DNA of 64,000 nt. Origin: Anaerolineales bacterium (GTDB lineage Bacteria; Chloroflexota; Anaerolineae; Anaerolineales; E44-bin32). The notes beneath the pieces are model-generated. The model worked only from the letters and a program-made list of their open reading frames with translations, was not told where the DNA came from and did no database searches. The stretch's first letter is position 1. Each line of letters opens with the position of its first letter. The stretch is from contig JARRJK010000027.1 of the NCBI GenBank assembly GCA_037379555.1, positions 1,285 to 65,284 on the forward strand, written 5' to 3'. The position numbers and the translations under genes were made by a program. This document shows positions 33,555 to 56,312 of this stretch, piece after piece.

Positions 33555-33618
33555 AATCACTATAGAGCATCCATTGGATGCACCCCACGAGGGAATGGGT
33601 GCTCGAGAGGGAAAAAAG

Positions 33619-35166
33619 ATGAACAGCACACGATGGGTATATGTCTTCCTGGGGCTGGCGGCCTTCGCGGTGCTCGGCACTGTGACAGTCATCGCGGCCT
33701 TTATTGGCCTCGATCTGGTGCGCGGCAGCGCCTGGAACGAAGGAGTGGCCTCGCCGACGCCTGCCGTGCTTCCAACGCAGTCCGGTCAGGCGAGCATAAG
33801 CGGCCTGGTCTGGCACGACCTGTGCGCTTCGGGCATCCCCGGCCAGCCTGCGCAGGCCGAAGCGCCTGCGGGATGCATCGCGGGTGGCGAATGGGGCTTT
33901 GCGGCCAACGGTATGCTCGAAGCGGGTGAACCGGGCATAACAGGCGTCTTCGTCCGTCTGGGGAGCGGTGCCTGTCCGGCGAGCGGACTGGCCGAGCAGG
34001 CCTCTGATGGGGCCGGTCGTTTCGCCTTCGAGCAGCTTGATCCAGGCACATACTGTGTCTCGATCGATCCGGGCGACGCCCGCAACGCACCACTCCTGCA
34101 GCCGGGCAATTGGACATTTCCTGAGCGCAGTGCGCCGGCGATGGCCACCATAAACGTGGAACAGGCGGAGCACATTTCAGATGTCAATTTCGGCTGGGAT
34201 TTCCAGTTCGAGCCGTTGCCTCCGACGCCGACCCCCACACCGACGGTCACGCCGACGGCGACCATGCCGCCCACGCCAACTCGCACGCCTACGCCTACTG
34301 CACCGCCGATCCCCTGTGACTGGGTTGGCTTCGTCAAAGATATATCCGTGCCAGACGGTACGAACCTGCATCCAGACGAGACCGCCACCAAGACCTGGCG
34401 GCTGAAGAACATCGGCACCTGCACCTGGACCCGCGATTACGACCTGGTTTTCATCACGGGTGCCCGGATGTCGAACACCAAGGCGGTGCCGCTGAAGGCA
34501 AACGTCAAGCCCGGGGAGACGATCGATATCTCGATTGAGCTCAGGGCGCCGGTTCTCACGGGCAAGTACACTGACTACTGGGCGCTGCGCAACGCCTCGG
34601 GACTGATCTTCGGGATGGGATCAGATGCCGATGACCCATTCTGGGTGACGATCAATGTGGTCAAGCCGAGAAAGGTCGTCTTCAACTTCTATGAGCATGT
34701 TTGTGATGCGGACTGGGTGAGCACCAGCGGTGAGCTTTCCTGCCCAACGCAGGATTACTCCATCGATGGACTCGTTCAAGGCGTGGCCCTTCCGGTCCTG
34801 GAAGGGGGGCGCCAGGAGAATGAGCCCGGGATCTGGGTCATTCCGGAAGGAGTCGGCGGCGGCCGGATCTCCGGCACCTTCCCGGCCCTTAGCGTGAAAT
34901 CGGGCGATCATTTTCGAACGGTAGTCTCCTGCGCGAATGACGCACCTGGCTGCGATCTGCAATTCAAGCTGGAGTACCAGATCGGAGACGGCGAGGTCAA
35001 GACGCTGGGCCGTTGGGATGAGACCTACGACGGCAAATACACCAAGGTTGACATCGACCTCAGTCCCCTGGCGGGCAAAGATGTGAAATTCATCCTGACC
35101 GTCCGGGCGAAGGATGCCTTCAACCAGGACTTTGCCCTCTGGCTGATGCCGGCGATCTATCGCTAG
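33619..35166 (+). CDS. membrane-anchored/secreted protein with SdrD-B/Cna-B-like domain, Pro/Thr linker and NBR1-like (Nbr1_FW) Ig domain
   Basis: ORF from 33574. The ATG at 33619 is preferred (MNSTRWVYVFLGLAAFAVLGTV anchor). GEPGITGVFVRLGS...GRFAFEQLDPGTYCVSIDP, then PLPPTPTPTPTVTPTATMPPTPTRTPTPTAPP, then CDWVGFVKDISVPDGT...TKTWRLKNIGTCTW...YWALRNASGLIFG. Confidence 0.8.
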   Translation: MNSTRWVYVFLGLAAFAVLGTVTVIAAFIGLDLVRGSAWNEGVASPTPAVLPTQSGQASISGLVWHDLCASGIPGQPAQAEAPAGCIAGGEWGFAANGMLEAGEPGITGVFVRLGSGACPASGLAEQASDGAGRFAFEQLDPGTYCVSIDPGDARNAPLLQPGNWTFPERSAPAMATINVEQAEHISDVNFGWDFQFEPLPPTPTPTPTVTPTATMPPTPTRTPTPTAPPIPCDWVGFVKDISVPDGTNLHPDETATKTWRLKNIGTCTWTRDYDLVFITGARMSNTKAVPLKANVKPGETIDISIELRAPVLTGKYTDYWALRNASGLIFGMGSDADDPFWVTINVVKPRKVVFNFYEHVCDADWVSTSGELSCPTQDYSIDGLVQGVALPVLEGGRQENEPGIWVIPEGVGGGRISGTFPALSVKSGDHFRTVVSCANDAPGCDLQFKLEYQIGDGEVKTLGRWDETYDGKYTKVDIDLSPLAGKDVKFILTVRAKDAFNQDFALWLMPAIYR

Positions 35167-35749: not shown

Positions 35750-36853
35750 ATGCGAAGGTACCGGGTGGTGCTTGCTTTGATGCTGCTTGGTTTGAGCGCA
35801 TGCGTCAATTCCGAGCGGAACCAGCTCCACGTTACCCCGACGCGAATTACAGCCGGCTACGGCCATACCTGCATCCTGAGGACATCCGGGGGGATCCTGT
35901 GCTGGGGACATAATGGTTTCGGACAGCTGGGAAGCGATGACCTCGGGGACTGGAAGAGTGCGCTCATGATGAATATCCCGGGAGAACTTTCGGCGGTCAC
36001 GGCCGGCGCATACCACACCTGCGCCTTGACTCAGGCGGGTGATGTGTACTGCTGGGGTTGGAATGCATTCGGCCAGCTCGGTGATGGCACGACGGTCGAC
36101 CGGACGTCACCGGTGCGCGTGAAATCCCTGCCCGCTGATGTGGTTCAGGTGGACGCCGGTTCGACCCATACCTGTGCCCTGGATGCACAGGGCGGAGCGT
36201 ACTGCTGGGGCCAGAACAGCTGCGGGCAGCTGGGCGATGGCACCCAGACCGACCAGTCTGAAGCAGTCCAGGTGCAAGACCTTCCAGCCGGAGTAACCAC
36301 GATCGCCTCCGGTGGGGTCTTCACATGCTCACTGACTGCGGCAGGCGACATGTACTGTTGGGGGGATGGGTCAGCGGACCGTTTCGCAGCAGGTAGTGAG
36401 CCTTGCGTCCTCAGGCCGATAAAAGTTAATGCAAGGCCCGGGTTGATCGCCATTGCGGCCGGAGAGTATCACCTGTGCGCACTTCAGGATGATGGTTCGG
36501 CTGCCTGTTGGGGATCGATCACTACGGAACGGGCGACGACCCCCGAGGAACCACTGGCTGCTTCAGGCCTGCCAGATCGGATTGCTCAGCTGGAGGCTGG
36601 AGCAGGTTTTCAATGCGGGTTGACCCAGTCCGGGCTCGTCTACTGTTGGGGTGATAACTACTTTGGACAACTGGGAGATGGAACGGATCGGCCGAGCTTA
36701 TACCCATTGGAGGCGGTAGCGCTGCAAGGGCATGCCCTGGAGATCGCGCTAGGCTCCGGTCATGTCTGCGCCATGATCGATGACGGAAAGGTGTACTGCT
36801 GGGGTGATGGTTCGGCTGGCCAGCTGGGCGATGGATCTCAGCGCTGGCAGTAA
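35750..36853 (+). CDS. RCC1-repeat beta-propeller lipoprotein
   Basis: 367 aa. Lipobox MRRYRVVLALMLLGLSAC. Seven repeats of the type GYGHTCILRTSGGILCWGHNGFGQLG. Confidence 0.9.
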   Translation: MRRYRVVLALMLLGLSACVNSERNQLHVTPTRITAGYGHTCILRTSGGILCWGHNGFGQLGSDDLGDWKSALMMNIPGELSAVTAGAYHTCALTQAGDVYCWGWNAFGQLGDGTTVDRTSPVRVKSLPADVVQVDAGSTHTCALDAQGGAYCWGQNSCGQLGDGTQTDQSEAVQVQDLPAGVTTIASGGVFTCSLTAAGDMYCWGDGSADRFAAGSEPCVLRPIKVNARPGLIAIAAGEYHLCALQDDGSAACWGSITTERATTPEEPLAASGLPDRIAQLEAGAGFQCGLTQSGLVYCWGDNYFGQLGDGTDRPSLYPLEAVALQGHALEIALGSGHVCAMIDDGKVYCWGDGSAGQLGDGSQRWQ

Positions 36854-37306: not shown

Positions 37307-38302
37307 TTACGGCGCGCCAGCCGCCCTGTCGCTCTGCACCCGCTGACGCACCCGCATGTAGAGCGCGGCCAATCCCGCGACTGCCGCCAATCCGACTATG
37401 CTCATCCCGGCCGGGTTGTCGGCGCGAGAAGGATCGGTTTCAGCCGCGAATGCAAGCAGAATGAAGAAAGTCAGGACGCCGGCTGCAAGCGCCAGACGGC
37501 CGCGGTCATCCCAGGCGCCTTCACCGCTCGCCCAGCGTATCAGGCGCCAGCTGCCGAGTGCGGCAAGCAGGATGAAGGCGATTGTCAGTGGAGCGGGGAA
37601 ACCGAGCTCCGGCATGGCCCATCCGCCGAAAAAGAGTGCGGTGATCCCCAGAAAGCCGAGCAGTCCCAACCGAAAAGATCCCCAGCGCGGCTTTGATTCG
37701 GGCTTTCCCCAGCGCGCCGGCTGCTCGTGGGCCAGAAATACGAGCGCCACGGTCGCGACCACGGCCAGCGCATAGGGCGCAAATGGAGGCCGGTAGGGGG
37801 TTAGAAATAGATTCGCGAAAACAACATCGATTGCCAGCAGGATGCCAACCGTGCGCATCCCCCTGCGCCCCAGCCATGGATCGTCGCGGCGCCCAGGGAA
37901 CAGGATCTCCACCAGCAGGATCGGCAGCGCGATGCTCACCACGGCATGGTAGAGCGTCAGCAGCACAGCCCACACCCAGTTTACGCCGGCCCAGCGGCCA
38001 TAGATTCCCAGCAAGCCGAGGTCCATCCAAGACGGATCGAAGAAGGATTTCACCATCAAGCCTTCCTCGAGTATGCCGTAGGCGAGACCGAGAACAAGGA
38101 TGGTCGGCCAGCGCTTTCCCCAGCGTAGAGCAGTTTCACGCACGAGCAGCGCTCCGCCACCATAGAGTGCTGCAAGCAGCAGCAGCGAGAATGGCTTGAA
38201 GAACTCAACCGGGGGAGATGATCCGGAGAGCAGTTCGCCGATGGCCGGCGCGAGTGTGAAGAGAACCAGGGCAGGGGGGACGCGGCGTCGCGAATCACTC
38301 AT
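37307..38302 (-). CDS. polytopic membrane protein, function unknown
   Basis: ORF to 38332. The ATG at 38302 is preferred (AAGGAG 5 nt upstream, MSDSRRRVPPALVLF...). About 8-9 hydrophobic helices. Confidence 0.65.
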   Translation of the reverse strand: MSDSRRRVPPALVLFTLAPAIGELLSGSSPPVEFFKPFSLLLLAALYGGGALLVRETALRWGKRWPTILVLGLAYGILEEGLMVKSFFDPSWMDLGLLGIYGRWAGVNWVWAVLLTLYHAVVSIALPILLVEILFPGRRDDPWLGRRGMRTVGILLAIDVVFANLFLTPYRPPFAPYALAVVATVALVFLAHEQPARWGKPESKPRWGSFRLGLLGFLGITALFFGGWAMPELGFPAPLTIAFILLAALGSWRLIRWASGEGAWDDRGRLALAAGVLTFFILLAFAAETDPSRADNPAGMSIVGLAAVAGLAALYMRVRQRVQSDRAAGAP

Positions 38303-38401
38303 GCTGTCTCCTTGAGACTTAAGGTGTTTCATTCATGAGTACAGGGAATCCTGCCGCGTTGTTGCACGCGTGTTTTGAAGTGGGAACCAATTCGGCGCGC
38401 G

Positions 38402-42548: not shown

Positions 42549-43127
42549 TCAATCTCCGTACAGTTCGTTGAACTTCTCGACCGGCATCCAGATGTCCATG
42601 CGCTGGATCTCACGAAAGCGTTTGCCGTGCAGCGTGCCGGGGTTGTACGTACTCATCAGGGCCCAGGTGAAGAGGTTCTCCCAGAATTCGCCGAAGCGTC
42701 CAAGCGGCGAGTAGTATGCCGTGAGCTCAAAGCCAAGATGCTCGAGAAGGCGCTGCTGAGCAGTCGACAGATCACCAGAAAACAAGACGGTCGCTCCGCC
42801 GATGGCCTTGATCTCACCCGCAAGACCCTGGTTAACAGCCCAGGAATGCAGCAGCCGCAGCGAGTGAACAAAGCGCTTTTGTGAATCAACAGCCCAGCGG
42901 AAATCAGGACCTTGCGGCGGAATGGTGGGCATGCGCTCATTCCAGAAGTGGATCAGCAGCAGGGAGGCGCCGGCCGCTATGGTTGTCGACGACAATCGGA
43001 TCGTGTGCTTCGCTCTGGTTAGGCTTGTCCGGAGGATGCAGCGCGGATCGGTAGAGAAGGTCTCGATGTGGGACAGTCGCCTGAGGATGAGATCGATCAG
43101 GCGGACGAATGCGGCGACGATGGGCAT
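42549..43127 (-). CDS. conserved hypothetical protein (last gene of the glycolipid-like cluster)
   Basis: 192-aa ORF with coding-like composition. It possibly resembles YkoP-like proteins, but I cannot support that from memory alone. Confidence 0.5.
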   Translation of the reverse strand: MPIVAAFVRLIDLILRRLSHIETFSTDPRCILRTSLTRAKHTIRLSSTTIAAGASLLLIHFWNERMPTIPPQGPDFRWAVDSQKRFVHSLRLLHSWAVNQGLAGEIKAIGGATVLFSGDLSTAQQRLLEHLGFELTAYYSPLGRFGEFWENLFTWALMSTYNPGTLHGKRFREIQRMDIWMPVEKFNELYGD

Positions 43128-43186
43128 ACCTTCTCCCCGTTTCCAGCATGGGGCGCCGGGTTACACCACATGTGACATTGCGGCGG

Positions 43187-44329
43187 TCAGCTGACAGCTT
43201 TCTTCAGGGCGAGCAGATGGCCGTCGGAATCCATGCGGAAACGCTCTCCTCGCCAGTAGACAGTGCGTCCGAACATTGCCGCCAACCAGACCAGCGCAGA
43301 GAGCATATCACGGACGGGCAGCCATGGAAGCCAGCGCCGCAGCTCGTCATCTTGTATATGGCCGGCGATGAACCAGGCGACTACCCAGCGCAGGAGTAAT
43401 GATACAGCTGTAAGTTGGACGGCGAGCGGTGAGAAATTCGAAAGGAACAAAGTCACGATAGACAGCGGAGTGCTGAATGTGAGCACTATGAAGGGATATT
43501 CCAGCGGCCGGCTGACCCGCACACAGCGAGCCCAGCGGATCTCGCGGTGCCACTGCTCCATGAAGCGAGTGGCGCCCAGGCGATTGATCATGATGTAGCG
43601 TGAAAGCACCACCTTGAAACCCGCTTTCCTTATCCGATACCCGATTTCGTAGTCATCCGCCAGATAATTTGCCACAGTCAGGAATCCGCCAATCGCATCA
43701 AGCGCAGCGCGGCGGATGATCAAGCTGGCACCCAGCCCGAAGCGCATTCCGAGCAGCTTTCTTCCGATCATCACCGAGGGCATGAAGGTCACGGACATGT
43801 GCATTGCTTCCAGGCGGGCAGTGAAGGTTTCTAGTTCGGCCGCCCGGTAAGGACAGGTGACCAGGCCCGTATTCCCGTCAGCAAGCGGAGCAACGACTTC
43901 GGACAGGTAGCTTGAATCGACATACATGTCGCTGTCGCTGACCGCAAGGATATCGTATTTCGCCACTCCCACCAGTTGATGCAGGATGCTTGCCTTGCGG
44001 TTCGTCCCGATAATACTGGTTTGGATCAGGCGAATCGACCTTTCCGGATAGTCGCGCTGCAAGCGAGTGATGATCGGCACCACCGGGTCATTAGCATCGT
44101 CGACACCAAACAGGATCTCATACTCGGGGTAGTCCTGCTGGCAGAACGTCTCAAAGTTATGGTAGGCGTGATCATCAACGCCGCGCACAGGTTTCAGAAT
44201 CGTAACCGGCGGTTGGTAGCTGCCGCTCTGGTGGGGCGATTCTCGAAAGAATGACCGGGTGAGCATCCAGGCGATAAGCCAAAATGCCCAACCGGCGACG
44301 ATGAGGATGATCAGCAGTTTCATGACCAT
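43187..44329 (-). CDS. glycosyltransferase family 2/21 (ceramide-glucosyltransferase-like / HpnI-like)
   Basis: 380 aa. N-terminal TM, PPVTILKPVRGVDD, DxD region ILAVSDSDMYV, Q/RxxRW-like EQWHREIRWARC, C-terminal TM helices. Confidence 0.85.
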   Translation of the reverse strand: MVMKLLIILIVAGWAFWLIAWMLTRSFFRESPHQSGSYQPPVTILKPVRGVDDHAYHNFETFCQQDYPEYEILFGVDDANDPVVPIITRLQRDYPERSIRLIQTSIIGTNRKASILHQLVGVAKYDILAVSDSDMYVDSSYLSEVVAPLADGNTGLVTCPYRAAELETFTARLEAMHMSVTFMPSVMIGRKLLGMRFGLGASLIIRRAALDAIGGFLTVANYLADDYEIGYRIRKAGFKVVLSRYIMINRLGATRFMEQWHREIRWARCVRVSRPLEYPFIVLTFSTPLSIVTLFLSNFSPLAVQLTAVSLLLRWVVAWFIAGHIQDDELRRWLPWLPVRDMLSALVWLAAMFGRTVYWRGERFRMDSDGHLLALKKAVS

Positions 44330-45180
44330 GATGGGTCCTCACTGAGCATCGCGTAGGTGGCCTGCTCAAAGCCGTGCTCTGGGACTGCGCTGCGGACGCG
44401 TGGATCGAGCAGGGCTTGCAGATCGTCTGGATTCGGGCCGAGCTCGTGCACGCGTGATCCGGTCGTTGGATGTGCGTACACTTCGATCGTCCGGTAGGAT
44501 GAGCGTTCCAGGATAAGAAGCAAGTAATCGGTATTCATGTGGCCTGATTGCAGCAGGCCATATGTACGTTCAACTGCGAGGAAATCCCCCTCGGTCAACC
44601 GGCGGCGCTGCCAGGCAGCAAGCCAGAGGAACACTGTGTTGGTCAGCGCCTTCGCCGCAGCCGAACGGCGGCTGTATGCCAGCGCAAGGTTCAAGTCATC
44701 GCGGGGAATACGGACTCCGTGTACGCCGAACTCCTGCATGAGCGAACTCAGGATCGGGAATACCGCTGGGTGCATGTGCATGTTCAAATGTCCATCAACA
44801 TGCGTGAGCGGCAGTCCGGACTCGAGAAAGGCATCGAATTGAGCGCGCATTTCGAGCTGCAGTTCTTGGCGAGCGCGCGCATCAAAGAAGTAGCGCACAC
44901 CTGCTGCGAACGCGTTCTGACGGAATTCCCCGCGCGAGTCTACAAGGCGGGGAATATCTGCTGGAGGGAGCGCGGCCCGGCCGGAAACCAGCACCAGATG
45001 CAGGCCCACGCTCAGTTCAGGGTGTGCCTTCGCAATCGCCACGGCTCCGGCTACGGCTTCGCCGTTGACCATCAGGCTGGCGCTGGTCAGCACGCCGTGA
45101 AGGTATGCCTGCCGGACGGCTTCATTGACCGATTCGTTCAGGCCGAAGTCGTCGGCGTTAAAGATGACTTTACGACTCAA
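44320..45180 (-). CDS. YdjC/ChbG-family carbohydrate deacetylase (HpnK-like)
   Basis: 286 aa from a TTG start. MSRKVIFNADDFGLNESVNEAV...LTSASLMVNG...GLHLVL...HVDGHLNMHMHP. Confidence 0.85.
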   Translation of the reverse strand: MSRKVIFNADDFGLNESVNEAVRQAYLHGVLTSASLMVNGEAVAGAVAIAKAHPELSVGLHLVLVSGRAALPPADIPRLVDSRGEFRQNAFAAGVRYFFDARARQELQLEMRAQFDAFLESGLPLTHVDGHLNMHMHPAVFPILSSLMQEFGVHGVRIPRDDLNLALAYSRRSAAAKALTNTVFLWLAAWQRRRLTEGDFLAVERTYGLLQSGHMNTDYLLLILERSSYRTIEVYAHPTTGSRVHELGPNPDDLQALLDPRVRSAVPEHGFEQATYAMLSEDPSWS

Positions 45181-45348
45181 GTTCTTGCCTTCTACCAGGT
45201 ATCCCAGGAGGTTGGTGGAATGCCCGCCGGCGCGAATGGCAAAATGGGTGGTGGTCCATGCCGGAGGAGTGGAAAGGTGTTCTCCTTATCTATCTACTAT
45301 GGTAATGGCAAATTCACGACTCCGGACCTTTTCTTTTCATTAAGAGGA

Positions 45349-46454
45349 TCAGCGGAAATGATCCATGGCCTCATGCGAGAGCTCTTCGTAGAGCTGAAGG
45401 TAGTCCGAGATCACTCTGCCCAGATCATGTTCAGCAGCGATCTGCAGGCTGTTCGCTGAAAAATCAGCCAGAGTTCTGCGGTCCTCGCTCAGCTTCCGCA
45501 CGGCGCGGGCGAGGGAGGTGGGATCACCGGATTGAAAAAGGTAGCCGTTGTAACCATCCCTGATAAGCTCCGGAAGCGCTCCTGCGTTGGCTCCGATCAC
45601 TGGCAGCCCGCAGGCCATCGCCTCGAGGGTGGCAATGCTGAGCAGCTCGATGTCGCTGGGCATGATGAAGGCATCGGCGCTGTTCAAAAGCGGTACGGTA
45701 CGTGTCCGTGCCCCGCCAAAGCCAATTGGACAGGCGCGCCGTTCAGGTATTTCATGGCCTCGATTGCCTGTTCCAGCTCCTTGTCTTCATCAATTCGGCC
45801 CACATAAAGCAGGATGAAACGCTCCGGATCCAGGCCGTGTTTTTCCAGGGTTCGTTTCCGGTCGTGCCCCTCCAGGGGTTTAAACCTCGCGCGATCAACA
45901 CCACATGATAGGGCCTGCACCGGCGTTTTGATACGGTGCTGCAGGAGCATCCGCACGCCGAATTGGGATGGGGTCGTGACCAGATTGGCTCGGTTCAACA
46001 CGCGCCGGATGGATCGCCACAAAATCGCTTCTGCGATGGCACGGAATGGTTTGAAAATTGACACCTGGCGGATCAAATTGGCCGGCAGGAAGTGGTTGGT
46101 TGCCAGGCAGGGGATGCCCCTGGCGCGGGCCTCGCGCAGTCCAGCGGCGGAGAGAGGGTAGTGATCCTGGATGTGCACGACATCGGGCCGGATATCATCA
46201 AACAGATCCGCAAGCTGTGTCTGGTTAAAAATAGGAATGTGCACCTCGGGGTAGAAGGGCGCCAGCGAGAACGAGATCACCTCGTGGATCATAACGCCGG
46301 CTTCATGCGCTGCTTCGGCGTGGCCCCGGAGGGAAGGGGTAAACACAGATACGTCCTGCCCGGCACCAGCGAGACCTTCAGCCAGACGTTGGCTGAAGAC
46401 AGCCGCTCCATTGACGTTGTGACCGTATGTTTGGCCGATCATAACGATTTTCAT
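45349..46454 (-). pseudogene. glycosyltransferase family 4 split by an out-of-frame internal deletion
   Basis: N-part 45684..46454 (MKIVMIGQTYGHNVNGAAVF...LLYVGRIDEDKELEQAIEAMKYLNGAPVQLALAGHGH then VPYRF*). C-part 45349..45687 in another frame (…TVPLLNSADAFIMPSDIELLSIATLEAMACGLPVIG…). The roughly 30 residues normally lying between the GxG motif and the ...ADxFxxPS motif are missing. Confidence 0.6.
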
Positions 46455-47476
46455 CCGCCCACCTCCCTGTCTCTTGTCCGGGTGAATGCGGGTATACGCT
46501 GCGAGGCGAAAAAACCGACGACGAGCGGAATCCAGTAGTTCATGCCGCGGAAAGCGACAATCACCGCAGCTGCTTCCGGACCAGAGATGCCCGCGCTGGT
46601 GAAAATCAACCCCATGATGCCTTCGACGGCTCCGATCGCCTGTGGGATGATGGAGATCACCCAGTAGACGATTCCGATCGAAAAGCCGGCAACCAGGACG
46701 CCCATGGATACCGGTTGGTGAAAAGCGAGGAAAAGAAAGTAAAGCCCGACTACATTGACGACATGCAAAACCAGCCCAGTTGCGACCAATTTGGCCAGTG
46801 GCATTGGCCTGGTGAAGATGGCCTGCGAAGCGCTGGACATATCCTGCACATTCCGACGGACCCAATCCTCGTCCAACAACTCGGCGCGCCCCAGGCGCTC
46901 ACCGATATTGTTTGTCAGCCTCCGGATGAACCCAAGCAGGCTTGCAAGCCGCCTGGCGCTCCGTCGAGCGGCAATCAGGGCTGCCAATAAAAGCCCGGTG
47001 AAAATGACATAGATCGCGACGCCAAGGACAGAGTAGAACTTGAACAGGTTTTGTTGAATCAGATACCAGACACTGTATGCCAGAAAGGGCCACAGCGTGA
47101 TCAGGTCGCTGGCAAGCACCAGCAGCAGCCCCACGCTCGTCCGAGCACCCGATTCCCCCCGCCTGATGGAGTTGTCAACAAAGACAGCCGCTCCCCCAGT
47201 TCCACCAAGGGGAGCAACGCTGTTCACGAAGAGCGACGCAAAGTAAACCGGGATGGCCTGCGCCAGGGTCGTCTTCACGCCAACGACGCGGAATCCGAGA
47301 ACATACATGCCACCGTAGATTCCGAAATAAAGCATATGCAGTGCAAGCGAGAGCAGGATCCAGTACCACAGGCCGCGCGCCAGCGTTGCGGTCAGTTGCT
47401 GCAGGCCGGAGAAGCGCGTGATGACCAGGAGGGTGAACCCGATCATCAGCGCATAAAGCAACCAGCGACGTTTCAA
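46451..47476 (-). CDS. flippase-like / LPG-synthase-TM (UPF0104) family membrane protein
   Basis: 341 aa, 8 TM, ...VYFASLFVNSVAPLGGTGGAAVFV.... ATGA overlap with the downstream GT4 gene. Confidence 0.8.
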   Translation of the reverse strand: MKRRWLLYALMIGFTLLVITRFSGLQQLTATLARGLWYWILLSLALHMLYFGIYGGMYVLGFRVVGVKTTLAQAIPVYFASLFVNSVAPLGGTGGAAVFVDNSIRRGESGARTSVGLLLVLASDLITLWPFLAYSVWYLIQQNLFKFYSVLGVAIYVIFTGLLLAALIAARRSARRLASLLGFIRRLTNNIGERLGRAELLDEDWVRRNVQDMSSASQAIFTRPMPLAKLVATGLVLHVVNVVGLYFLFLAFHQPVSMGVLVAGFSIGIVYWVISIIPQAIGAVEGIMGLIFTSAGISGPEAAAVIVAFRGMNYWIPLVVGFFASQRIPAFTRTRDREVGG

Positions 47477-47777
47477 AGCGATGCAGCTTTCTCATGCCAA
47501 CAGAGTGCGCGGTTAATATCCTGCACAAGAATTATAAATTGCGGGATACCCGGTGGAGAGATGAGATTCCGCTGCAACTGGGTGGCAGCTGCAAGCGTCA
47601 CGGATTGAATCTGAACAGGCTTCATGGCGGGAAGAATTGCGAAAAAACCGGACAACGCTGACGTTGCGCTGCACGAAACGAATCATGCGAGGGCGGTCCA
47701 GTTCGAGGGGACTACAGCGATCTCGAGCAGTTCTACATGGATCCGCCAACGCACCCCAGCCTAGAATCAGCTTCGGA

Positions 47778-50700
47778 TTACGTCCCTTCGGGGATGATGT
47801 CGATCAGGACCGCGCGCACGACGGTACGTCTCAGGTAAAGACCCTGGGCCGGATTGAAGCTGTGGCAGGTGATGAGTGTGAGCCAATCTCGCTCCTCATG
47901 CTGCATCACGCTCAAATCATCCGGGAGGACGGTTCGCCGCTGGCGAACCTCGTAGACATAGATCAGGCCATCGCTGTGCAGCAGGATCCGATCGCCCCAA
48001 TTAATCTCAGAAAGCTCGCTGAACGGCCCCGGCAAGCCGCTTGGAAGCACGACGTGGGCGGTGAGCATCGTGTTGCCGGCATGAGTCGGATAGGCTGTGC
48101 CATACAGGTATCCGATGCTGTTCCACAACCAGGTAAGGTCCCAGCCAGAGTCATCTGTCCCGACACCGACGATCGAAGCGCGCATGCCGAGCGACGGGAT
48201 TTCAAGCTCCAGATCCCCCAGTGAGGTGTAGGCTTTCGAGACGGGTTGTGCTGGCAGCGGCGTGCGCTGACCCGGCGCGAATCCGGTTTCCGGCAGCTCC
48301 GGCGCGCCAACCGAGACGCTGGCGAGAACCTGGTACAGGTCGACCGGCGTGGTTGGATCGTAGCGCCGTTCCGCTGCGAGCGCGTTGAAGGGTGAGAGCG
48401 CATAGGCCGCAGCCACGTTGTCGTCAGGCAGGCTGGTCCATTCGAGTGAAGCCTGGTTGACGAGACGCTGCCCGGGTCGGATGTCACCGAGGACTACATC
48501 GAACGTGATCTGGCTCGTCTCCGTCAGGTCAAAGCTATCCCATGTGACGGTGATCACACCACCTGATTCACTGCACGATCCGGAGCTGCAGCTCAAGGTA
48601 CCGGGAACGTAGGCGAGCTCCGGCGGCAGCATGTCCGTCAGCACGAGGTCGAACGCAATCGAATCGCTCGCTGCGGCCTGGGCGACGGTCAGTTTGAAGG
48701 TGATGGATGAGCCGGGCGGCGTGGTTCGCGGGGAGGCGTCCTTCGCCAAAGTGAGCGTCGGTTCGACGATCTCGATTTCGTTCGCCGAGGCGCTCAGCTC
48801 CCCCGACCCCCAGGTCCAGTGCGCAGCGTTGTTCAGACGGACGCCGCGCAGGTTGCCCGCGTTGTCCAATACGACGACTGTGTAGATGATGGTCAGCGTC
48901 TCATCGCTTCCGCCGAAGGGGTTATTGTTGGTGACATCCCCCAGGTTGAAGACGATCCGCCGTCCCTGGTCCTCTTCAGCAGGGCTTGCGGCAGGTTCCG
49001 GCAGGATCTGTGGGTTCCCCCCGGCGGGATTTCCAGCATCTGGAGCGCAGGCGGCAGGGAACCCACCGGAGAGCGTGGTTGTCAGGTTGCCCGAACTGGG
49101 CGTGATCGAGACGCAATCCACGAACGATAGGCCGCGGTCCAGCACGTCCTCGATCTGCACGCCGCTGATGGACCCGGAGGGGATGTTGAGCACGATCTCG
49201 TAGGTCAGGATCTCGCCGATGGCCACCGGGGGCGTGCCCGTGATCTGTGCATCGCCCGGGTCGGTGTGGTTCTGGTTGGTAGCCAACAGGTTCTTGTTGA
49301 TGTCCAGGTTCCCGAGCGTGACCACATTATCGCGATCGGTGCTTGTGTTGTCGCCCGGGGTCTGATCGGCGCCATTGGTGCCGTCATCGGTGATCACAGC
49401 CGTGTTTGCAACCAGGCTCGTCCCGATGGGGAATGGATCGTCGACCAGCAATGCCAGCTGCACGCTTCCCCCGGAGCCAGCTGCCAGCGTGCCAACGATG
49501 TAGTTGCATGTACTGCCGGGATCCCCTGGTCCGAGCGGGCCGGTGCCATCGGGATCATCGCAGTTCCAGCCCGGACTGCTCGAGCCGGCCTGGAAAGTCG
49601 TGTCGGCTGGCACATCGTCGCTGATGACTACGCCGGACGCGTCCTGGTCGCCGTTATTGGCGTAGCTGAGCGTGAAGATCAACAGCGTTCCAGGCGAGAC
49701 CGTATCGACGCCGTCATCCTTTACGACCGATAGATCGGGCGCGGCTATAAGCGGGGTACTGTGGCTCGCGCTGTTGTTGCCCTGCAGCAAAACCGGCTCG
49801 TTGGAGGCCGAGACCGAAGCGGTGTTGGATGTGATATCCACCAGGATTGGCAGGGAGCTGTCTACGGCGACGGAGAAACTGACGCTGGCAGAGCTGCCTC
49901 CGGCCAGCGGGCCGAGGGCATAGGTGCAAACGCTGCCAGCGGGAGCGCCGAGCGCGCATGACCAGCCGGCCGGGCCGGCAAAGGCAGTGTGATCCGGCAC
50001 CGTATCCGTAATGAGAACGTCCGCCGCATCGACATTGCCGATGTTCTGAATGGCGAGCGTGTACGAAACCGTTTGTCCGGGCGCTGCTGAGAGAACGCCA
50101 TCGTCCTTGCTCAGGGTGACATCGACCTCCGAGGCTGTGATGGTCTCGCTCGCCGCTGCAGCGTAGTCGTTCAATCCGCCGCCCACCCCATCGGCGCCGG
50201 TTCGCTCATTGGCATCGGTTCCACTAAGCGAGGTCCAGGAGGCATTTGCCGTATTGGTCAGAGTATCTCCGACTGCGACTGCTGGTGGGATGCCCAGCGC
50301 GGCCCGGTAAGAGAGGTTGACCGTTTCGCCGAGCGCTATCTGGCCAGCGCTGAACGTCAGCGCTGGAGCGGCGCTGTCATCGAGCGACCATCCCGGTGGA
50401 AGAGGGGTTACCGGTCCGAGATAACTCAAGCCGGAGGGGACAATATCGGTGAGCACGATATCCTCTGCAGCGGCGTTCGAGCTGCCGCCGGGATTGCTGA
50501 CCGTGAGTGTGTATGTAACCGTCCCACCCAGGCTGGGCGTGTCGTCGTCGGCGGCTTTGAGGAGCGTGAGAGTCGGCTCAACAACCTCAACGTCGGCGTT
50601 GGCTGCAAGCGTATCGCTGTTGTACGTCAGCTCAGCAGTATTTGTTAGCTGATCTCCATCCTGGTTGGCGGTTACGTTCTCCATCCGGGCGACGATTTCC

Positions 50701-53700
50701 AGCGTGATCACATCGCCCGTGTCGCTGACGCCGTCCGGCGCGTTGGTCACATCGCCGAAATCAAATATCACCTGATCGTTGATACTGTCGGCGTCAGGCC
50801 CATCGCTGATCGTGATGCTGGGGATGATCGAGCTGCTGATCTGGCCGCCGATGGAGACGATGTCGGCGCTGACGACGCCGAGGACGCCAGCTGGGACAGT
50901 CGGCAGATTGTCGGTCAGTCGCAGCGGAGCAGCCGTTCCCTCTGGGAGCGTGGCAGTAATCTGGAACGTCACTTCCTCGCCGATCACCAGGTCGACGATG
51001 CTCAGGTCATGCCGTGATGAGGTCGTGCTGCTGACGGATGTGGAGCTGATGGTTTTTGAGAGAATTGGGTCGGCCAGTGACAGGTCGGCCAGGGCCGAAT
51101 CACCGAAATCGTTCACGCCACCGGAGCCATCCCGCTCACCGTTCGCTGATCCAGCCCCGCCGGGTGTGACCGAGCCGGTCCCGTTGGGCGAAGTGCCGTT
51201 GCCCGGCAGGCTGCTGTAGGTCAGGCTTATGGTGTTGGGGATATCAGCACCGATCGGAGCATCGTCCACAACGCGCGCAGTGAGGGTGATGCTCGCCGTC
51301 GCACCCGGGTCGAGACAGGTGAGACTGGCCGTGACCAACTGGCCCGCGGCGCCGCCGTTGAAAGCGATCGGCGTGCCGCCGAGGCAGCTCCCGCTGTTCG
51401 GCGTGCCGCTGATTGAAACGAATTCAAGGTAGCTGTCAAGCGTGTCGCTCAGGACGATGTCAAACGCTGTGGCGGCGCGGGCGCCGCTCGAGCTGTTGCT
51501 GAAGCCAATTGTGTATTCGACTGTGTCGCCGGCATCAGAGGGTGCCAGGCTGACGGTCTTGGCAAGGTTGGTGATGAGCGCCTCGGCGACGCGAACGGTG
51601 ACAACGCTGGAGTAGCTCCCGAGGACATCGGGCGTGCCAAGCCGGGTGCGGAAGCGGTTGTTGAGAGCCGTGATCGTCGCCGTCCCGCCGGTGATGTTGT
51701 TGTAGGCTTGATTGCCAGCGATGTTCTCGATGATGGCATTGAATTCGACGACGACGAATTCCTGGTCCAGATCACGGTCGCTGTTGACCAAGGTATCGAA
51801 CCAGAAGTACACATTTGATCCGCTGGCGTAGTTGTCGGCGCTACGATTGCTGGGGCTGGACGAGACGGCGTTATCAGGCAGCACGAAAGACGGGACGATG
51901 CTGGCGAGGTTGGCTTCACTGCCCGTTGCGAATAACGCTGGATCGGACAGGGTCGAAGAGGTGATGCCCGCGTCGTTGGAAACGAGCACCGCCATCGCAG
52001 TGCCATCGTCGAGAAAGAGCAGCCCTGGATACAGGTCGTCTTCAATCCGGAAGTTCACCGCCGTGCCCTCAGCCAGCTGGAAGGCCAGCCGGTAGCGCAC
52101 AATCTCCCCGATCACGACTCGCTCCGACCCGCTTACGAAGCCTGAACTTGGCTCGGAGGTGGTGGCGATGGTCTTGGTCGGGCCGCTGGTGATCGTCACG
52201 ATCCCATCGCCGCTGGCTGCGTAGTCGTCCACGCCTCCCGCGCCCGAGCGTTCAATGGCAGTGGTGTTGTATGGCGAGCGGGGTGTGGTCTCGTCGCCTG
52301 GCAGGCTGGTCCAGGTCAGATCAGCGCTGTTGGTCAGCACCTCGCCCGGGCTGACGGAGGCGTCGAGCGTGACCTCAAAGGTGAACACGGTCGTGCTCCC
52401 CAGGGGAAAGCCCGTGGGCTGATTCCAGCTCGCCGTGAGCGTATTTCCACTGAATGAGCACGTATCCGGCGTGAGGCTGCCGCCGGTGCAGTCGAGCGTG
52501 CTGGTGGTGTACGTCATCCCGGCTGGCAGTGCATCCGAGAGATTCAGGTCGAACGCATCAGCATGACTCACCGCAGCATCGATCACCGTTTCGGCGTCGT
52601 GTTGGACGGTCATCGTGAAGGTGATCGTATCGCCGGCATCGCCCTGATTCGGGGCAGGCACCTTGCTCACCATCAGTTTGGGCTCGATCACGGTCAGGTT
52701 CGGAGCCCCGACCGCTGTCAGGCTGCCACTGTTCCAGGACAGGACTGCGCTGTTGTTCAGGAGCGTGCCATCCTGATTCCCGGCGCTGTTGAGAACGACG
52801 ACCCGGTAGCTGAATGTGATCTGCTCGGCAAGTGCGTTATCCCGGTCGGTGTTGATCAGGTCGCCGAGTTCGAAACGAACGCTTGAACCTGGGCTGGCTA
52901 CAGGTGGGCTGATAAACGCGCCGCAGCCCTCGGAAAAATCGCCAGCCCCGATGGAGGTCGAGATCGCGCTCGAGGCGGTGATGGAGAGGCAGTCGAGAAA
53001 CGCCAAACCGGCATCAAAATTGTCGAGCACGACCGCACCCGGCATCTCGCCTTCCGGGACATCGATCGTGATCGAGTAGGTGGCGATCTCGCCGATGACA
53101 GCCTGAGCGCGAGCGTTGTTGGGATTCTCGATCTCGCTGCTGACGAGCGACTTTGCCAGCACGCCGGTAACTGACGTCTCGGCGGTATCCGTCTGAGGCG
53201 CGGCGAGATGGTTCTGACCGCCTTCGCTGCCGGCGTAGCTGACCAGCGATTCGGTGTTGATGATCGTTCCCGGCGTGACATCGTCCCGCAACTGCAGATC
53301 GAAGGTGATCAGGATGATGTTGTTACCCGAATTTGGATCGTGTGCTTGGCAGACGCCCGAGCCGACCGGGTCGACCAGTTCGATGCCGCTGCCGAAGAGG
53401 TCATCCGCGGTGTTGTCTGTCCCATCCGGGCCGCCGCCGAGGCCCGTGAAGCCGATCGCGGGATCGGAGGAATCGCCATAGTAAACCTGCAGGTTGAGGC
53501 CGCTGGCGTCGCCCGGGATCTGAAATTCGGCGGGCAGGTCATCACGGATGACGATGTCGAAGGCGCCGTTCAGGCTCGAACCAGTGTTCTCGATCACGAT
53601 GGCGAAGGTGACGACATCGCCGGCGTCGACGAAGCTGACATTGCTATCGATCGGGCTTGCCGCCAGGTTGGTCGAGTTAATCACGCCTCCCCAGCGCGGT

Positions 53701-54611
53701 GAATTGGTGCGGTCGAGAAATGTCACCGGTCCGATCGTAACCGGGTCGAAGACAGCGTTGGGGTTGTTGGACCAGATGGCAGCCTTCTTCGAAACCAGGA
53801 CCGGCTCTGTCAGCACGATCTGGGTGATCGCGTCCGAGGCAACTGTGCCGGCGTTGGTGCTGCCCTCGAAGCCGTGGACCTGGTTGGTCAGGTAGAGCCG
53901 GTCGGCGAAGGGCTCGCTGGAGACCACGACGGTGAAGAGCAGGTCGACCGTCGTCACCTGATGGCGGGGGTCGTTAAAGTCGCCGTAATAGAAGTTGAGC
54001 GAGTTGTTTGCAGGATCGGATGTCAGCGCCGGCACGAGGCAGCCGGCGGGTGTCCCGCCGGGATCGCAGGTGTAGGCATAGAACGAATCGGCTGGCCCGA
54101 ATTTTGCGATGCCGGGTGCTGGTGCACCCGCGCTGACCGTCGTATCAAAGGACCAGGCCGGTCCCGGGTTTCCATCGCCATCAGGATCGGCGACGTTGAA
54201 AATCGGGAGCGGGATGTAATCGGTGAATTCGAGATTCTCCTCGTCGCTGGTGGGCAGGCTGAACTGTATGCGGTACGTGAGGCTGTCGCCTGGTTTGACC
54301 TCGACCGGGGAGGAGAGCGTGGTGCTGCCGTTCAGGGCGTAGATCGATTTCGACAGCGTGCCGGTGCCGATCTCCGCGCCCGCCGCACTGCCATCGGTCT
54401 CATCGAAACCGGTGGGCGAGAAGCTGCTGGTGTCGAGCACTTCCCCGGTTACGCTGGCAGTGTTACCGAGCACATCGCCCTGGTCGACGCTCGTGTCGCC
54501 GGAGGGATAGTCGTCGATAAAGTCATCGAGGATCGTGGTCTGGAAACGGATGATGGCGTAGGTCGGGCCGTCGTTGTACCCACCCGGAAGCCCCGTGTCG
54601 CATTCTGGCAT
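47778..54611 (-). CDS. giant DUF11-repeat surface protein (C-terminal 2,277 aa) ending in LPETG plus a fused sortase domain
   Basis: There are many repeats of the type PGDSLTYRIQF..., AGDTITFTMTV...LSDALPAGMTY, GGTVTYTLTVSNPGG...VLTDIVPSGLSY, and recurring ...W(T/N)SL(P/S)G...ER(T/S/D)G..G(V/L)(N/D)D(Y/F) segments. The C-terminus reads ...ELPETGFAPGQRTPLPAQP...LEIPSLGMRASIVGVG...THAGNTMLTAHV...WLTLITCHSF...RRTVVRAVL (sortase His/Cys/Arg). Confidence 0.85.
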   Translation of the reverse strand: MPECDTGLPGGYNDGPTYAIIRFQTTILDDFIDDYPSGDTSVDQGDVLGNTASVTGEVLDTSSFSPTGFDETDGSAAGAEIGTGTLSKSIYALNGSTTLSSPVEVKPGDSLTYRIQFSLPTSDEENLEFTDYIPLPIFNVADPDGDGNPGPAWSFDTTVSAGAPAPGIAKFGPADSFYAYTCDPGGTPAGCLVPALTSDPANNSLNFYYGDFNDPRHQVTTVDLLFTVVVSSEPFADRLYLTNQVHGFEGSTNAGTVASDAITQIVLTEPVLVSKKAAIWSNNPNAVFDPVTIGPVTFLDRTNSPRWGGVINSTNLAASPIDSNVSFVDAGDVVTFAIVIENTGSSLNGAFDIVIRDDLPAEFQIPGDASGLNLQVYYGDSSDPAIGFTGLGGGPDGTDNTADDLFGSGIELVDPVGSGVCQAHDPNSGNNIILITFDLQLRDDVTPGTIINTESLVSYAGSEGGQNHLAAPQTDTAETSVTGVLAKSLVSSEIENPNNARAQAVIGEIATYSITIDVPEGEMPGAVVLDNFDAGLAFLDCLSITASSAISTSIGAGDFSEGCGAFISPPVASPGSSVRFELGDLINTDRDNALAEQITFSYRVVVLNSAGNQDGTLLNNSAVLSWNSGSLTAVGAPNLTVIEPKLMVSKVPAPNQGDAGDTITFTMTVQHDAETVIDAAVSHADAFDLNLSDALPAGMTYTTSTLDCTGGSLTPDTCSFSGNTLTASWNQPTGFPLGSTTVFTFEVTLDASVSPGEVLTNSADLTWTSLPGDETTPRSPYNTTAIERSGAGGVDDYAASGDGIVTITSGPTKTIATTSEPSSGFVSGSERVVIGEIVRYRLAFQLAEGTAVNFRIEDDLYPGLLFLDDGTAMAVLVSNDAGITSSTLSDPALFATGSEANLASIVPSFVLPDNAVSSSPSNRSADNYASGSNVYFWFDTLVNSDRDLDQEFVVVEFNAIIENIAGNQAYNNITGGTATITALNNRFRTRLGTPDVLGSYSSVVTVRVAEALITNLAKTVSLAPSDAGDTVEYTIGFSNSSSGARAATAFDIVLSDTLDSYLEFVSISGTPNSGSCLGGTPIAFNGGAAGQLVTASLTCLDPGATASITLTARVVDDAPIGADIPNTISLTYSSLPGNGTSPNGTGSVTPGGAGSANGERDGSGGVNDFGDSALADLSLADPILSKTISSTSVSSTTSSRHDLSIVDLVIGEEVTFQITATLPEGTAAPLRLTDNLPTVPAGVLGVVSADIVSIGGQISSSIIPSITISDGPDADSINDQVIFDFGDVTNAPDGVSDTGDVITLEIVARMENVTANQDGDQLTNTAELTYNSDTLAANADVEVVEPTLTLLKAADDDTPSLGGTVTYTLTVSNPGGSSNAAAEDIVLTDIVPSGLSYLGPVTPLPPGWSLDDSAAPALTFSAGQIALGETVNLSYRAALGIPPAVAVGDTLTNTANASWTSLSGTDANERTGADGVGGGLNDYAAAASETITASEVDVTLSKDDGVLSAAPGQTVSYTLAIQNIGNVDAADVLITDTVPDHTAFAGPAGWSCALGAPAGSVCTYALGPLAGGSSASVSFSVAVDSSLPILVDITSNTASVSASNEPVLLQGNNSASHSTPLIAAPDLSVVKDDGVDTVSPGTLLIFTLSYANNGDQDASGVVISDDVPADTTFQAGSSSPGWNCDDPDGTGPLGPGDPGSTCNYIVGTLAAGSGGSVQLALLVDDPFPIGTSLVANTAVITDDGTNGADQTPGDNTSTDRDNVVTLGNLDINKNLLATNQNHTDPGDAQITGTPPVAIGEILTYEIVLNIPSGSISGVQIEDVLDRGLSFVDCVSITPSSGNLTTTLSGGFPAACAPDAGNPAGGNPQILPEPAASPAEEDQGRRIVFNLGDVTNNNPFGGSDETLTIIYTVVVLDNAGNLRGVRLNNAAHWTWGSGELSASANEIEIVEPTLTLAKDASPRTTPPGSSITFKLTVAQAAASDSIAFDLVLTDMLPPELAYVPGTLSCSSGSCSESGGVITVTWDSFDLTETSQITFDVVLGDIRPGQRLVNQASLEWTSLPDDNVAAAYALSPFNALAAERRYDPTTPVDLYQVLASVSVGAPELPETGFAPGQRTPLPAQPVSKAYTSLGDLELEIPSLGMRASIVGVGTDDSGWDLTWLWNSIGYLYGTAYPTHAGNTMLTAHVVLPSGLPGPFSELSEINWGDRILLHSDGLIYVYEVRQRRTVLPDDLSVMQHEERDWLTLITCHSFNPAQGLYLRRTVVRAVLIDIIPEGT

Positions 54612-56023
54612 TCCGTACCGGGACTGGTGTAGTCGCAGAGTACGTCGTAGTTTGGCGCGGCAAAGGATGCGCTGGGAAGCGTGTAGCGGTTGCCAGCGAC
54701 CTCGAGACTGGGGGTGCCGGTCAGATGCTGTCCATCCGAGATCGTATCGTTGATCTCAAGGCCGTCGAAGGCGAAGAAGTCCGAAATTTGGAAAGCCAGA
54801 CTGTATTCGAGCGTATCGCCCGGTGAGTTGCCTCCACCGCTGAGGTTGGTGACCCCTTTTTGCAGGGCAATAGATTTGGCCGTCAGCGCGTGCTCGCAGC
54901 TGGCCGGGTTCTCGCTCACACCTCCACCGCTGTCGCGCGGGTCGAGAGGCGTCCAGTCGCCGCTGATCGCGGCGTTGTTGCAGGCCGTGACGTCATTCCC
55001 GGACGAGGGGTTCAGCACCCAGTTGCTGGACGCATCATCAAGAGGTATGAAGAAATCGAAGCTCAGGCTGGCGCTGCCGCTCACGCTGCCCGGGAAGGTG
55101 CAGGCGAGCGTTTCGCCTGGAGCCGCCCCAATCGCGCTGCAGGCGGCCCCCGGAGGTGAGGACGAGATCAGGGAAAACCCCTGCAGGTTGGCCGGCAGCT
55201 GATCCGAGAGCACGACCGAGGCCAGGCTCTGTCCGGGTGCGATGCCAATGGTGACGGTGTACTGCAGCGGATAGTAGCCCCGGACATTCGACCCGCTTGC
55301 AGCTTCGTCCTCGGGACCGCTGTAAGTCTTGGAAAGCGTGAACAGCGTCGGTGTAACCGTCCTCGTCGTCCAACCGGTGAGGGTGGAGGGGCCGGTGTCG
55401 CCGCAGCACCAGTCGTCGAGCGGCGTGGCGCCAAATTCGAACCCGGCCCGCGCCTGGATCGTCAGTGGGGAACCGAGATCGGCGTAGCTGCTCATGTTGG
55501 CTGTGACGGATACTGGCGCCGGAGGCTGATCAGGTGCGAAGCTGCCGAAGGGTAGACGCAGCACGACAAGCGTGTCGCCCGGCGTCCCGCTGACGGTGAT
55601 GTAGCTGCCGCTGGCATCCCGCATGAGAGGGTGTGTGGCATTTCCTGCACTGTCAAACGGGATCAGCCACATGTTCTGGTTTGGGCCGGAGGTTTGGAAG
55701 GGAACCGTCAGATATGAAGCTGAGATCGAACTCGTTCCCAGGCCGTCGTAGGGGAGGCCGCCGGTGTCGGCATCCGCTCCGGTGGTGTCCAGAATCAGGT
55801 CAATGACCGGGCCATAACCGGGATCGGCGCCGGTGTTGTCAAACTCCACCGTGAAGGTCACGTCCTGTCCGATTGGCACCTGCGCTGGGACGTTCAGGCT
55901 CAGGCTCGCAGCTGGGGCCGGCATGGGTTTGGTGTGCGTATCTTCACGGGGAGCTGGCAGTGAAGTTGGAGCAGGGCGTGCAGCGGCTGTGCTCCCGGGT
56001 AAGCCCAGCAGCATCAGAGCCAT
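54449..56023 (-). CDS. N-terminal 5' part of the same giant surface protein gene (separated by an 8-bp duplication frameshift)
   Basis: 524-aa ORF. Sensible sequence runs up to ...NYDVLCDYTSPGTEC, then an Arg/Ser-rich nonsense tail. Sense continues in the frame of ORF 47778..54611 (…DTGLPGGYNDGPTYAIIRF…). The start codon and signal peptide are uncertain (MALMLLGLPGSTAAA). Confidence 0.7.
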   Translation of the reverse strand: MALMLLGLPGSTAAARPAPTSLPAPREDTHTKPMPAPAASLSLNVPAQVPIGQDVTFTVEFDNTGADPGYGPVIDLILDTTGADADTGGLPYDGLGTSSISASYLTVPFQTSGPNQNMWLIPFDSAGNATHPLMRDASGSYITVSGTPGDTLVVLRLPFGSFAPDQPPAPVSVTANMSSYADLGSPLTIQARAGFEFGATPLDDWCCGDTGPSTLTGWTTRTVTPTLFTLSKTYSGPEDEAASGSNVRGYYPLQYTVTIGIAPGQSLASVVLSDQLPANLQGFSLISSSPPGAACSAIGAAPGETLACTFPGSVSGSASLSFDFFIPLDDASSNWVLNPSSGNDVTACNNAAISGDWTPLDPRDSGGGVSENPASCEHALTAKSIALQKGVTNLSGGGNSPGDTLEYSLAFQISDFFAFDGLEINDTISDGQHLTGTPSLEVAGNRYTLPSASFAAPNYDVLCDYTSPGTECQNATRGFRVGTTTARPTPSSVSRPRSSMTLSTTIPPATRASTRAMCSVTLPA

Positions 56024-56312
56024 CCCGAATGCATACAGTGTGCGTGTTAACCCGCAGGCGGATGGGGTGGAGCAGCGTCGACGCAGTTGGCTATTGATGT
56101 TTTTCTCCGCATTAAACAGGAGCCGCTGCAGGGCGCTCCCGGCCTAATCATAATTGGCTTCCGCATTCCTGCGCAAGGCAGGATTTTGCGGAAAATTCGA
56201 GAAAATTAATGCAACGGTCCTGGCTTTGGCAGGGCATGGATTTGGGCTTGTGCATCCGGCTGGAAGGCCTCCCCGATGTGGAGAGATGAGGGGACCAGCG
56301 TCGTCCTTCAGC

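Follow-up and report, generated by a model that had tools for sequence, protein, structure and literature searches.

Sortases of the classical kind are anchored in the membrane and work in trans, on proteins that a hydrophobic tail keeps there. Here we describe a sortase domain that lies in the same polypeptide as an LPxTG motif, at the C-terminus of a giant adhesin encoded in a 64,000-nucleotide stretch of DNA (hereafter the window) from an Anaerolineales bacterium (NCBI GenBank assembly GCA_037379555.1, contig JARRJK010000027.1, positions 1,285 to 65,284 of the forward strand). Digesters, sediments and activated sludge are dominated by Anaerolineae, which belong to an abundant, little-studied and probably monoderm phylum. 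With the classical sortase/LPXTG system (classes A–F; MEROPS C60, PF04203) the adhesin shares the common fold of the enzyme, a His-Cys-Arg triad with TLxTC, an LPxTG motif with a variable x, and the type of cargo, namely isopeptide-stabilised fibrillar adhesins. It differs in that enzyme and substrate are one polypeptide and that the enzyme has no membrane anchor. Unlike a classical sorting signal, moreover, it has no hydrophobic segment or charged tail; the motif lies ~172 residues from the C-terminus, and conservation is strong in the residues past the predicted scissile bond (GFAP...T.LP.QP...Y).

In class C sortases the active site is covered by an extension at the N-terminus, with a DP(F/W/Y) lid (PMC11231552). 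As a candidate correspondence, the unit described here would also have an N-terminal extension that lies over the catalytic face and about as far from strand beta1, but this extension is LPxTG rather than DP(F/W/Y), and neither an N-terminal signal anchor nor a C-terminal transmembrane helix is present; no separate pilin substrates or pilin-motif lysine were found here. Mao reportedly described an engineered self-cleaving sortase fusion tag in 2004. Engineered fusions of this kind also hold a sortase and LPETG in one chain, but they are artificial, have the reverse order, release a Gly-target and serve hydrolytic release, not transfer. Chemistry in cis is nevertheless feasible, because engineered SrtA-LPETG-target fusions (BISOP) cleave themselves (PMC2901362). 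The PEP-CTERM/exosortase and GlyGly-CTERM/rhombosortase systems and the C-terminal domains of the type IX secretion system (T9SS) are likewise portable C-terminal units found on unrelated passengers within one lineage; there, processing falls to a membrane protein distinct from the tag, whereas here the enzyme is part of the tag. The C-terminal autoprocessing domains of Hedgehog/Hint proteins and the FrpC module act for a single turnover: the carboxyl group of the passenger is activated (as a thioester or anhydride) and handed to a nucleophile, and the domain is discarded. The logic proposed below resembles theirs, although the two are not homologous and differ in both fold and chemistry.

Sorting motif and sortase in one chain

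The downstream reading frame of the adhesin (47778..54611; this and all other coordinates in this section are on the minus strand) encodes 2,277 amino acids, with a stalk built from DUF11/CLIPPER domains and isopeptide domains of the RrgB-D2 type, and a C-terminal LPETG-sortase module. Six stretches of the passenger match PF01345 (DUF11, now CLIPPER; Pfam, E 4.6e-63) and two match TIGR04226 (RrgB-D2-type isopeptide, fimbrial; NCBIfam, E 2.4e-44). The protein ends in ...SVGAPE-LPETG-FAPGQRTPLPAQPVSKAYTSLGDLELEIPSLGMRASIVGVG...LTAHV...TLITC...RRTVVRAVLIDIIPEGT and a stop codon. The LPETG pentapeptide, identified from the translation and from family conservation, occupies residues 2106-2110 (48282..48296), with a predicted scissile bond between Thr2109 and Gly2110. 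Directly after it come the residues FAPGQRTPLPAQPVSKAYTSLGDLELEIPSLG..., and the conserved linker FAPGQRTPLPAQPVSKAY (48228..48281) contains no transmembrane helix and is modelled by AlphaFold2 with a predicted local distance difference test score (pLDDT) of 88-96. The sortase catalytic domain (PF04203; residues 2136-2269, 47805..48206) scores above the Pfam threshold (E 4.1e-21, 75-80 bits against a cutoff of 26.6), as does PF01345, and is predicted by AlphaFold2 to form an eight-stranded beta-barrel; with the generic NCBIfam sortase model TIGR01076 it reaches 40-45 bits, where the cutoff is 39.35. His2186 (LTAHV, 48054..48056), Cys2249 (TLITC, 47865..47867) and Arg2262 (Cys+13, 47826..47828), identified in the sequence, make up the catalytic triad, and the chain ends 28 residues past the cysteine.

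The distance from LPETG to the sortase core is 25 residues. There is no transmembrane segment in the last 230 amino acids, in which the maximum Kyte-Doolittle 19-residue mean is 0.96, and the protein has no match to PF00746 (Gram_pos_anchor) in Pfam or to TIGR01167 in NCBIfam. What follows LPETG is thus a 167-residue soluble enzyme in place of a hydrophobic segment and positively charged tail. The original prediction, made from the letters of the window and its reading frames, had located the LPETG codons at this position on the minus strand and had proposed that motif and enzyme lie about 25 residues apart in one chain with no membrane segment between them; residue mapping bears out the former, and Pfam searches and hydropathy the latter.

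Conservation of the module

Conservation was computed over 324 non-identical homologous modules. The cysteine occurs in every one of them because they were selected on TLxTC; the catalytic histidine (324/324), a tyrosine at Cys+10 (324/324) and the arginine at Cys+13 (323/324) are retained as well. The family can be summarized by the signature (L/I)PxTG-FAP(G/N/D)-x-(V/I)-T-x-LPxQP...Y followed by the sortase. Within the pentapeptide, position 1 is Leu in 77% of modules (Ile 7, Ala 4, Met 3), position 2 is Pro in 99%, position 4 is Thr in 97% and position 5 is Gly in 99%, while position 3 is free (Ala 28, Glu 22, Asp 10, Ser 9, with Arg also seen). A profile with fixed Pro, Thr and Gly and a free x is like that of a genuine sortase substrate. 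Chance can be excluded as the source of the motif, because it is conserved in 324 modules at ~139 residues from TLxTC. In the linker, Phe (98%), Ala (91%) and Pro (95%) are followed by Gly, Asn or Asp, any residue, Val or Ile, Thr (93%), any residue, Leu (78%), Pro (80%), any residue, Gln (77%) and Pro (78%), with Tyr (90%) further on. Conservation of these residues beyond the predicted scissile bond indicates that the linker belongs to the unit as a structured element. Hydropathy maxima over 19 residues have a median of 1.17 across modules, and 95% of modules have only 21-36 residues after the cysteine.

Distribution and passengers

A homologue search with the last 220 residues of the window protein returned 210 proteins, mostly from Anaerolineales and Chloroflexota metagenomes. 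In most of them LPxTG lies exactly 139 residues ahead of TLxTC; the motif is kept directly N-terminal to the sortase core with the same spacing and a conserved linker. A scan of one genome per GTDB species gave 502 confirmed loci, essentially all in Anaerolineales, Anaerolineae or Chloroflexota. The module also occurs on two short contigs binned outside Chloroflexota, one of 8.4 kb in a metagenome-assembled genome (MAG) of a Methanosarcinales archaeon (L006) and one of 3.8 kb in an Acidithiobacillus ferrivorans MAG (L044); mis-binning is the most likely explanation of both, rather than horizontal transfer. A profile search of 1.84 billion cluster representatives retrieved 1,447 proteins at E<=1e-30.

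In the 78 loci that were fetched the module always ends the open reading frame (ORF), with 0-14 residues beyond the domain, in ORFs of 750 to >3,500 amino acids, and in all 150 of the 150 best profile matches it lies at the extreme C-terminus (from profile positions 2-7) of proteins of 270-5,246 amino acids. Full-length family members have classical N-terminal Sec signal peptides, and their passengers are mutually unrelated, including CLIPPER/DUF11, Ice_binding, DUF7933, FG-GAP and Big_1 domains and domains without a Pfam match. Given these signal peptides and unrelated passengers, the module behaves like a portable sorting tag. Two very small complete members, P0111 (339 amino acids) and P0176 (289 amino acids), have a single small domain between signal peptide and module. 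Tandem gene pairs occur in three loci, and each gene has its own sortase domain: the paired giant genes lie at 1..954 and 1130..10540 in L010, at 2..10531 and 11220..15710 in L037, and at 2..10507 and 10805..20503 in L042, each ending in an LPxTG-sortase module. Variants of the motif, IPVTG among them, occur in some of these tandem genes.

Relation to known sortases

In Foldseek the modelled domain finds class E, C, D and A sortases with probability 1.0 and template-modelling scores of 0.58-0.69; the matches with the most aligned columns (168-180) and the highest scores (0.68-0.69) are lid-bearing class C sortases. The closest solved structures by sequence are also class C pilus sortases (24rr_A, E 4.6e-15). 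The NCBIfam class models (NF033745/6/7/8, TIGR03784) all score below their cutoffs of 158-166, at 49.7 bits for class C, 47.4 for D, 43.4 for E, 35.1 for F and 30.2 for GN. In the full-length profile alignment, TGFAPG of the query falls on GLDPF, the class C lid motif, of 24rr_A, at an equal distance from beta1. When the profile is limited to the motif, linker and beta1-beta3, it retrieves no class C sortase from the PDB and only chance hits at E>1, which leaves the correspondence with the lid of 24rr_A as a lead.

Probable recognition of the motif by its own enzyme

The strongest couplings between linker and core, measured as mutual information with average product correction, connect motif residue 1 with two positions of the beta6/beta7 loop (0.127 and 0.121), a moderate signal that exceeds the 99th percentile (0.075) and stays below the 99.9th (0.17). 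One of these is loop position 153, represented in the window protein by Met2236 (47904..47906, minus strand) in a short helix of the loop. Where motif position 1 is Leu, position 153 is mostly Leu (170 against 40 Phe); where it is Ala, Ile, Met, Gln or Ser, position 153 is mostly Phe (odds ratio 12, Fisher p = 7e-18). A neighbour-joining tree from which the loop columns were left out shows 35 and 37 changes of the two characters, with 11 branches on which both change against 2.0 expected. The beta6/beta7 loop is the accepted determinant of sorting-signal recognition (reviewed in PMC11231552). Weak couplings also connect module positions 35 and 43 (query ~2118 and ~2126) with positions 168 and 172 (query ~2251 and ~2255), as well as with the beta2-beta3 loop. 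Those to the residues after the cysteine would be compatible with a linker that passes the active site; they are suggestive and too weak to rely on.

AlphaFold2, run with family alignments, models the sortase barrel with a pLDDT of 91.5 and a predicted template-modelling score of 0.88. In a 232-residue construct, LPETGFAPGQ has a pLDDT of 93 and the next ten residues 96, compared with 56-79 for the truncated passenger domain that precedes them. The motif is therefore modelled as docked and not floppy; this confidence bears on docking of the segment as such, not on its place relative to Cys2249. Conservation of the pentapeptide, its co-variation with the loop and the confidence of the model together support the view that the enzyme recognizes its own motif.

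Proposed mechanism and alternatives

The original prediction offered two readings of the locus, of which a cis-acting, possibly single-turnover auto-sortase appears to be the best supported by sequence and modelling. We propose that LPxTG, a 25-residue linker and a soluble C-terminal sortase, which together make up the last ~172 residues, form a portable and self-contained module of Anaerolineae that would sort its own passenger in a single turnover; we give this reading a probability of about 0.55. Export would proceed through Sec by the N-terminal signal peptide, which is evident in the sequences of intact members and, in the window, lies in the upstream reading frame. The sortase domain, as the last part to emerge, would fold outside the cell with its own LPxTG in the substrate groove, as co-variation and AlphaFold2 confidence suggest. 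Cys2249 would then attack the Thr2109-Gly2110 bond, so that the passenger is held on the enzyme through a thioester of its Thr and the sortase fragment starts with GFAPG. Finally, an amine would resolve the thioester, which would leave the passenger covalently attached and the spent domain discarded after one turnover; the most likely acceptor would be a cell-wall precursor or another envelope amine, and an envelope protein or another subunit could also supply the amine. We infer the cleavage, its occurrence in cis rather than in trans, and the acceptor. In this scheme the module would stand in for the sortase of the membrane and also for the tail, hydrophobic and charged, with which a classical signal ends. 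The wider proposal is that Anaerolineae have a system in which a built-in, single-turnover, soluble sortase cleaves its own LPxTG in cis and holds the thioester until an amine of the envelope, or possibly of a foreign surface, captures it. This would be Hedgehog-like logic on a sortase fold, replacing membrane sortases and classical signals across >1,000 protein families; it is tentative, and we would place it slightly short of even odds.

Several considerations weigh against cis-acting self-sorting. The coupling between motif and loop is moderate, and such co-variation would fit trans action between identical molecules, or a lid, equally well. Confident docking of the motif is not the same as docking at the catalytic cysteine. 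After cleavage in cis the glycine leaving group would stay tethered near the thioester, so that re-ligation would be favoured, and it is not obvious how a soluble sortase would reach lipid II. The window copy, being frameshifted, may be non-functional. In favour of self-sorting, each gene of a tandem pair keeps its own sortase domain, and no stand-alone sortase (E<=0.01) was found in a six-frame hidden Markov model scan of the window and of ~1.1 Mb of flanking DNA from 79 loci; a regular-expression scan of the window and the same flanks likewise found no credible LPXTG signal with a transmembrane segment and tail.

The same evidence can be set against other explanations. LPxTG-FAPG could be a pseudo-substrate lid that is never cleaved and auto-inhibits the active site, with the fused sortase working in trans once the lid is displaced. 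Class C sortases, in which such an extension lies over the active site (PMC11231552), provide the precedent, and the alignment of GLDPF in 24rr_A with TGFAPG, the long, high-scoring Foldseek matches to lid-bearing enzymes and the high pLDDT of the linker are all in keeping with such a lid. We consider this explanation unlikely, however, in that a lid has no need of a full canonical pentapeptide with a free x, the profile of the N-terminal part (motif to beta3) fails to retrieve a class C lid from the PDB, and the class C model of NCBIfam scores 45-50 bits against a cutoff of 160; the ~1.1 Mb of flanking DNA also holds no separate substrates with classical signals, and the enzyme is fixed to the C-termini of many different passengers without an evident role in trans. 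Alternatively, the sortase of one molecule could cut the LPxTG of its neighbour and join it to a lysine or N-terminal amine, which would build covalent fibres or meshes, in effect a pilus with its own polymerase. That the nearest relatives by sequence are pilus-polymerising class C sortases, that the passenger has fimbrial RrgB-D2-type isopeptide domains (TIGR04226) and that co-variation would also arise between identical chains acting on each other all suit this homotypic reaction. It is about as improbable as the lid: the window protein has no YPKN-type pilin motif, nearly all passenger lysines are, by inspection, in first-strand positions typical of intramolecular isopeptide bonds, and the same module occurs on small, unrelated passengers (Ice_binding domains and the proteins of 289-339 amino acids), while a 25-residue tether and confidently modelled intramolecular docking would favour action in cis.

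A further functional alternative is a self-removing pro-domain, in which the Thr-Gly bond is cut and water resolves the thioester, so that the module merely frees its passenger into the medium, for example as an aid to folding or export. Sortases slowly hydrolyse their substrates when no nucleophile is available, the engineered fusions mentioned above work in this way, and no membrane anchor keeps the reaction at the wall. A simple protease would suffice for this purpose, however, whereas the retained triad (Arg in 323/324 modules) and the invariant Tyr at Cys+10 argue for transfer, and fibrillar adhesins require anchoring for their function; we judge the pro-domain somewhat less probable again than the lid or the homotypic reaction. 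The other reading in the original prediction was that a recent deletion had fused an adhesin to a downstream sortase gene. Mis-assembly could have produced the same local accident, and the gene does contain another local lesion, the frameshift at ~54,600-54,613 considered below. Fusion by recent deletion is refuted, because the same junction, spacing and linker recur in hundreds of independent genomes and in >1,000 protein clusters; the 502 loci and 1,447 representatives (E<=1e-30) carry the module on many unrelated passengers, and a local accident of either kind is left with a negligible probability.

Novelty and significance

Full-text literature searches turned up no account of a natural fusion of passenger, LPxTG and sortase, nor of the self-contained processing of surface proteins that it suggests; in the original prediction, too, an auto-sortase was not known to have a described mechanism. 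The parts of the module are already known; the arrangement and the mechanism that it implies do not appear to be. Public records label family members only as 'sortase' or 'LPXTG-site transpeptidase family protein'. Surveys of adhesins and isopeptide domains search for LPxTG only in the last 50 residues (PMC9210967, PMC12617251) and are therefore blind to a motif ~172 residues from the end, so that the family exposes a blind spot of current surveys and database labels. If the proposed self-sorting is correct, surface proteins would be attached or matured in a new way in the phylum of Anaerolineae, and the anchoring of their giant adhesins would be explained. Self-sorting would also bear on the origin of the class C lid, which could be a degenerate cis-substrate, or the reverse. 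For protein engineering, the module could provide a compact, genetically encoded, self-activating ligation tag.

Split gene and signal peptide

In the window as assembled, the signal peptide and the LPETG-sortase module do not share a frame. The adhesin's upstream frame (54449..56131, minus strand; open from 56131, first ATG at 56023), which overlaps the ORF of 2,277 amino acids, encodes ~470 residues of N-terminal adhesin domains and has a signal-peptide-like segment (..TLYAFGMALMLLGLPGSTAAA/RP), with a maximum 19-residue Kyte-Doolittle mean of 1.43 over LYAFGMALMLLGLPGSTAA. An Anaerolineales homologue (L002) that is 71-75% identical has a single uninterrupted frame of 2,835 codons. Its residues 5-515 align to window positions 56131..54608 and its residues 562-2833 to 54608..47787. 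At the frameshift junction, GAATGC-CA-GAATGC (54600..54613, minus strand), 46 codons and 1 nucleotide (~139 nucleotides) of L002 are missing between two Glu-Cys codon repeats. The 6.8 kb 3' of the frameshift contain no additional stops, which indicates that the frameshift is recent or an assembly error; it is either a pseudogene lesion or such an error. The passenger of more than 2,100 residues given in the original prediction thus holds for the ORF of 2,277 amino acids, but this ORF is not the whole gene and its frame has no signal peptide. Another homologue, P0258, begins at the same residue as the window ORF and was considered as a sign of a real gene boundary; this was rejected, since its start is merely a contig end. 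Adhesin genes are split in other MAG loci as well. The signal-peptide-like segment (..RRRCSTPSACGLTRTLYAFGMALMLLGLPGSTAAA/RP, within 56023..56131, minus strand) starts 5' of the first ATG, GTG or TTG and is conserved with L002, and the true start of the adhesin may be a non-canonical codon.

Genomic neighbourhood

All-against-all clustering of flanking ORFs in 78 loci found no accessory gene that is consistently linked to the module; O-methyltransferases and histidine kinases occur in the flanks of at most 17 of the 78 loci, and the remaining clusters are adhesin fragments. Upstream neighbours in the window encode ClpB and a RecN-like (SMC_N-domain) protein. About 105 nucleotides past the stop codon of the adhesin is a terminator-like hairpin (47652..47672, minus strand), which is weak as a signal (1 found against 0.6 expected). 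The next genes downstream, also on the minus strand, form an envelope glycoconjugate/glycosyltransferase cluster (42549..47476) that encodes LPG_synthase_TM-like, GT4, YdjC, GT2/GT21 and YkoP proteins; it is not conserved beside adhesin homologues.

A 341-residue polytopic membrane protein without a Pfam match (37307..38332, minus strand) has the C-terminus ...DNPAGM, a hydrophobic segment and RVRQR. Its homologues lie within 8 kb of module-bearing genes in five loci, including L023 (3457..4470), which could reflect synteny or a functional link. Other exported proteins of the window use different anchors: an SdrD_B/Ig-like protein (33574..35166, plus strand) has an N-terminal transmembrane helix, and an RCC1-repeat protein (35750..36853, plus strand) has a lipoprotein signal (LSAC).

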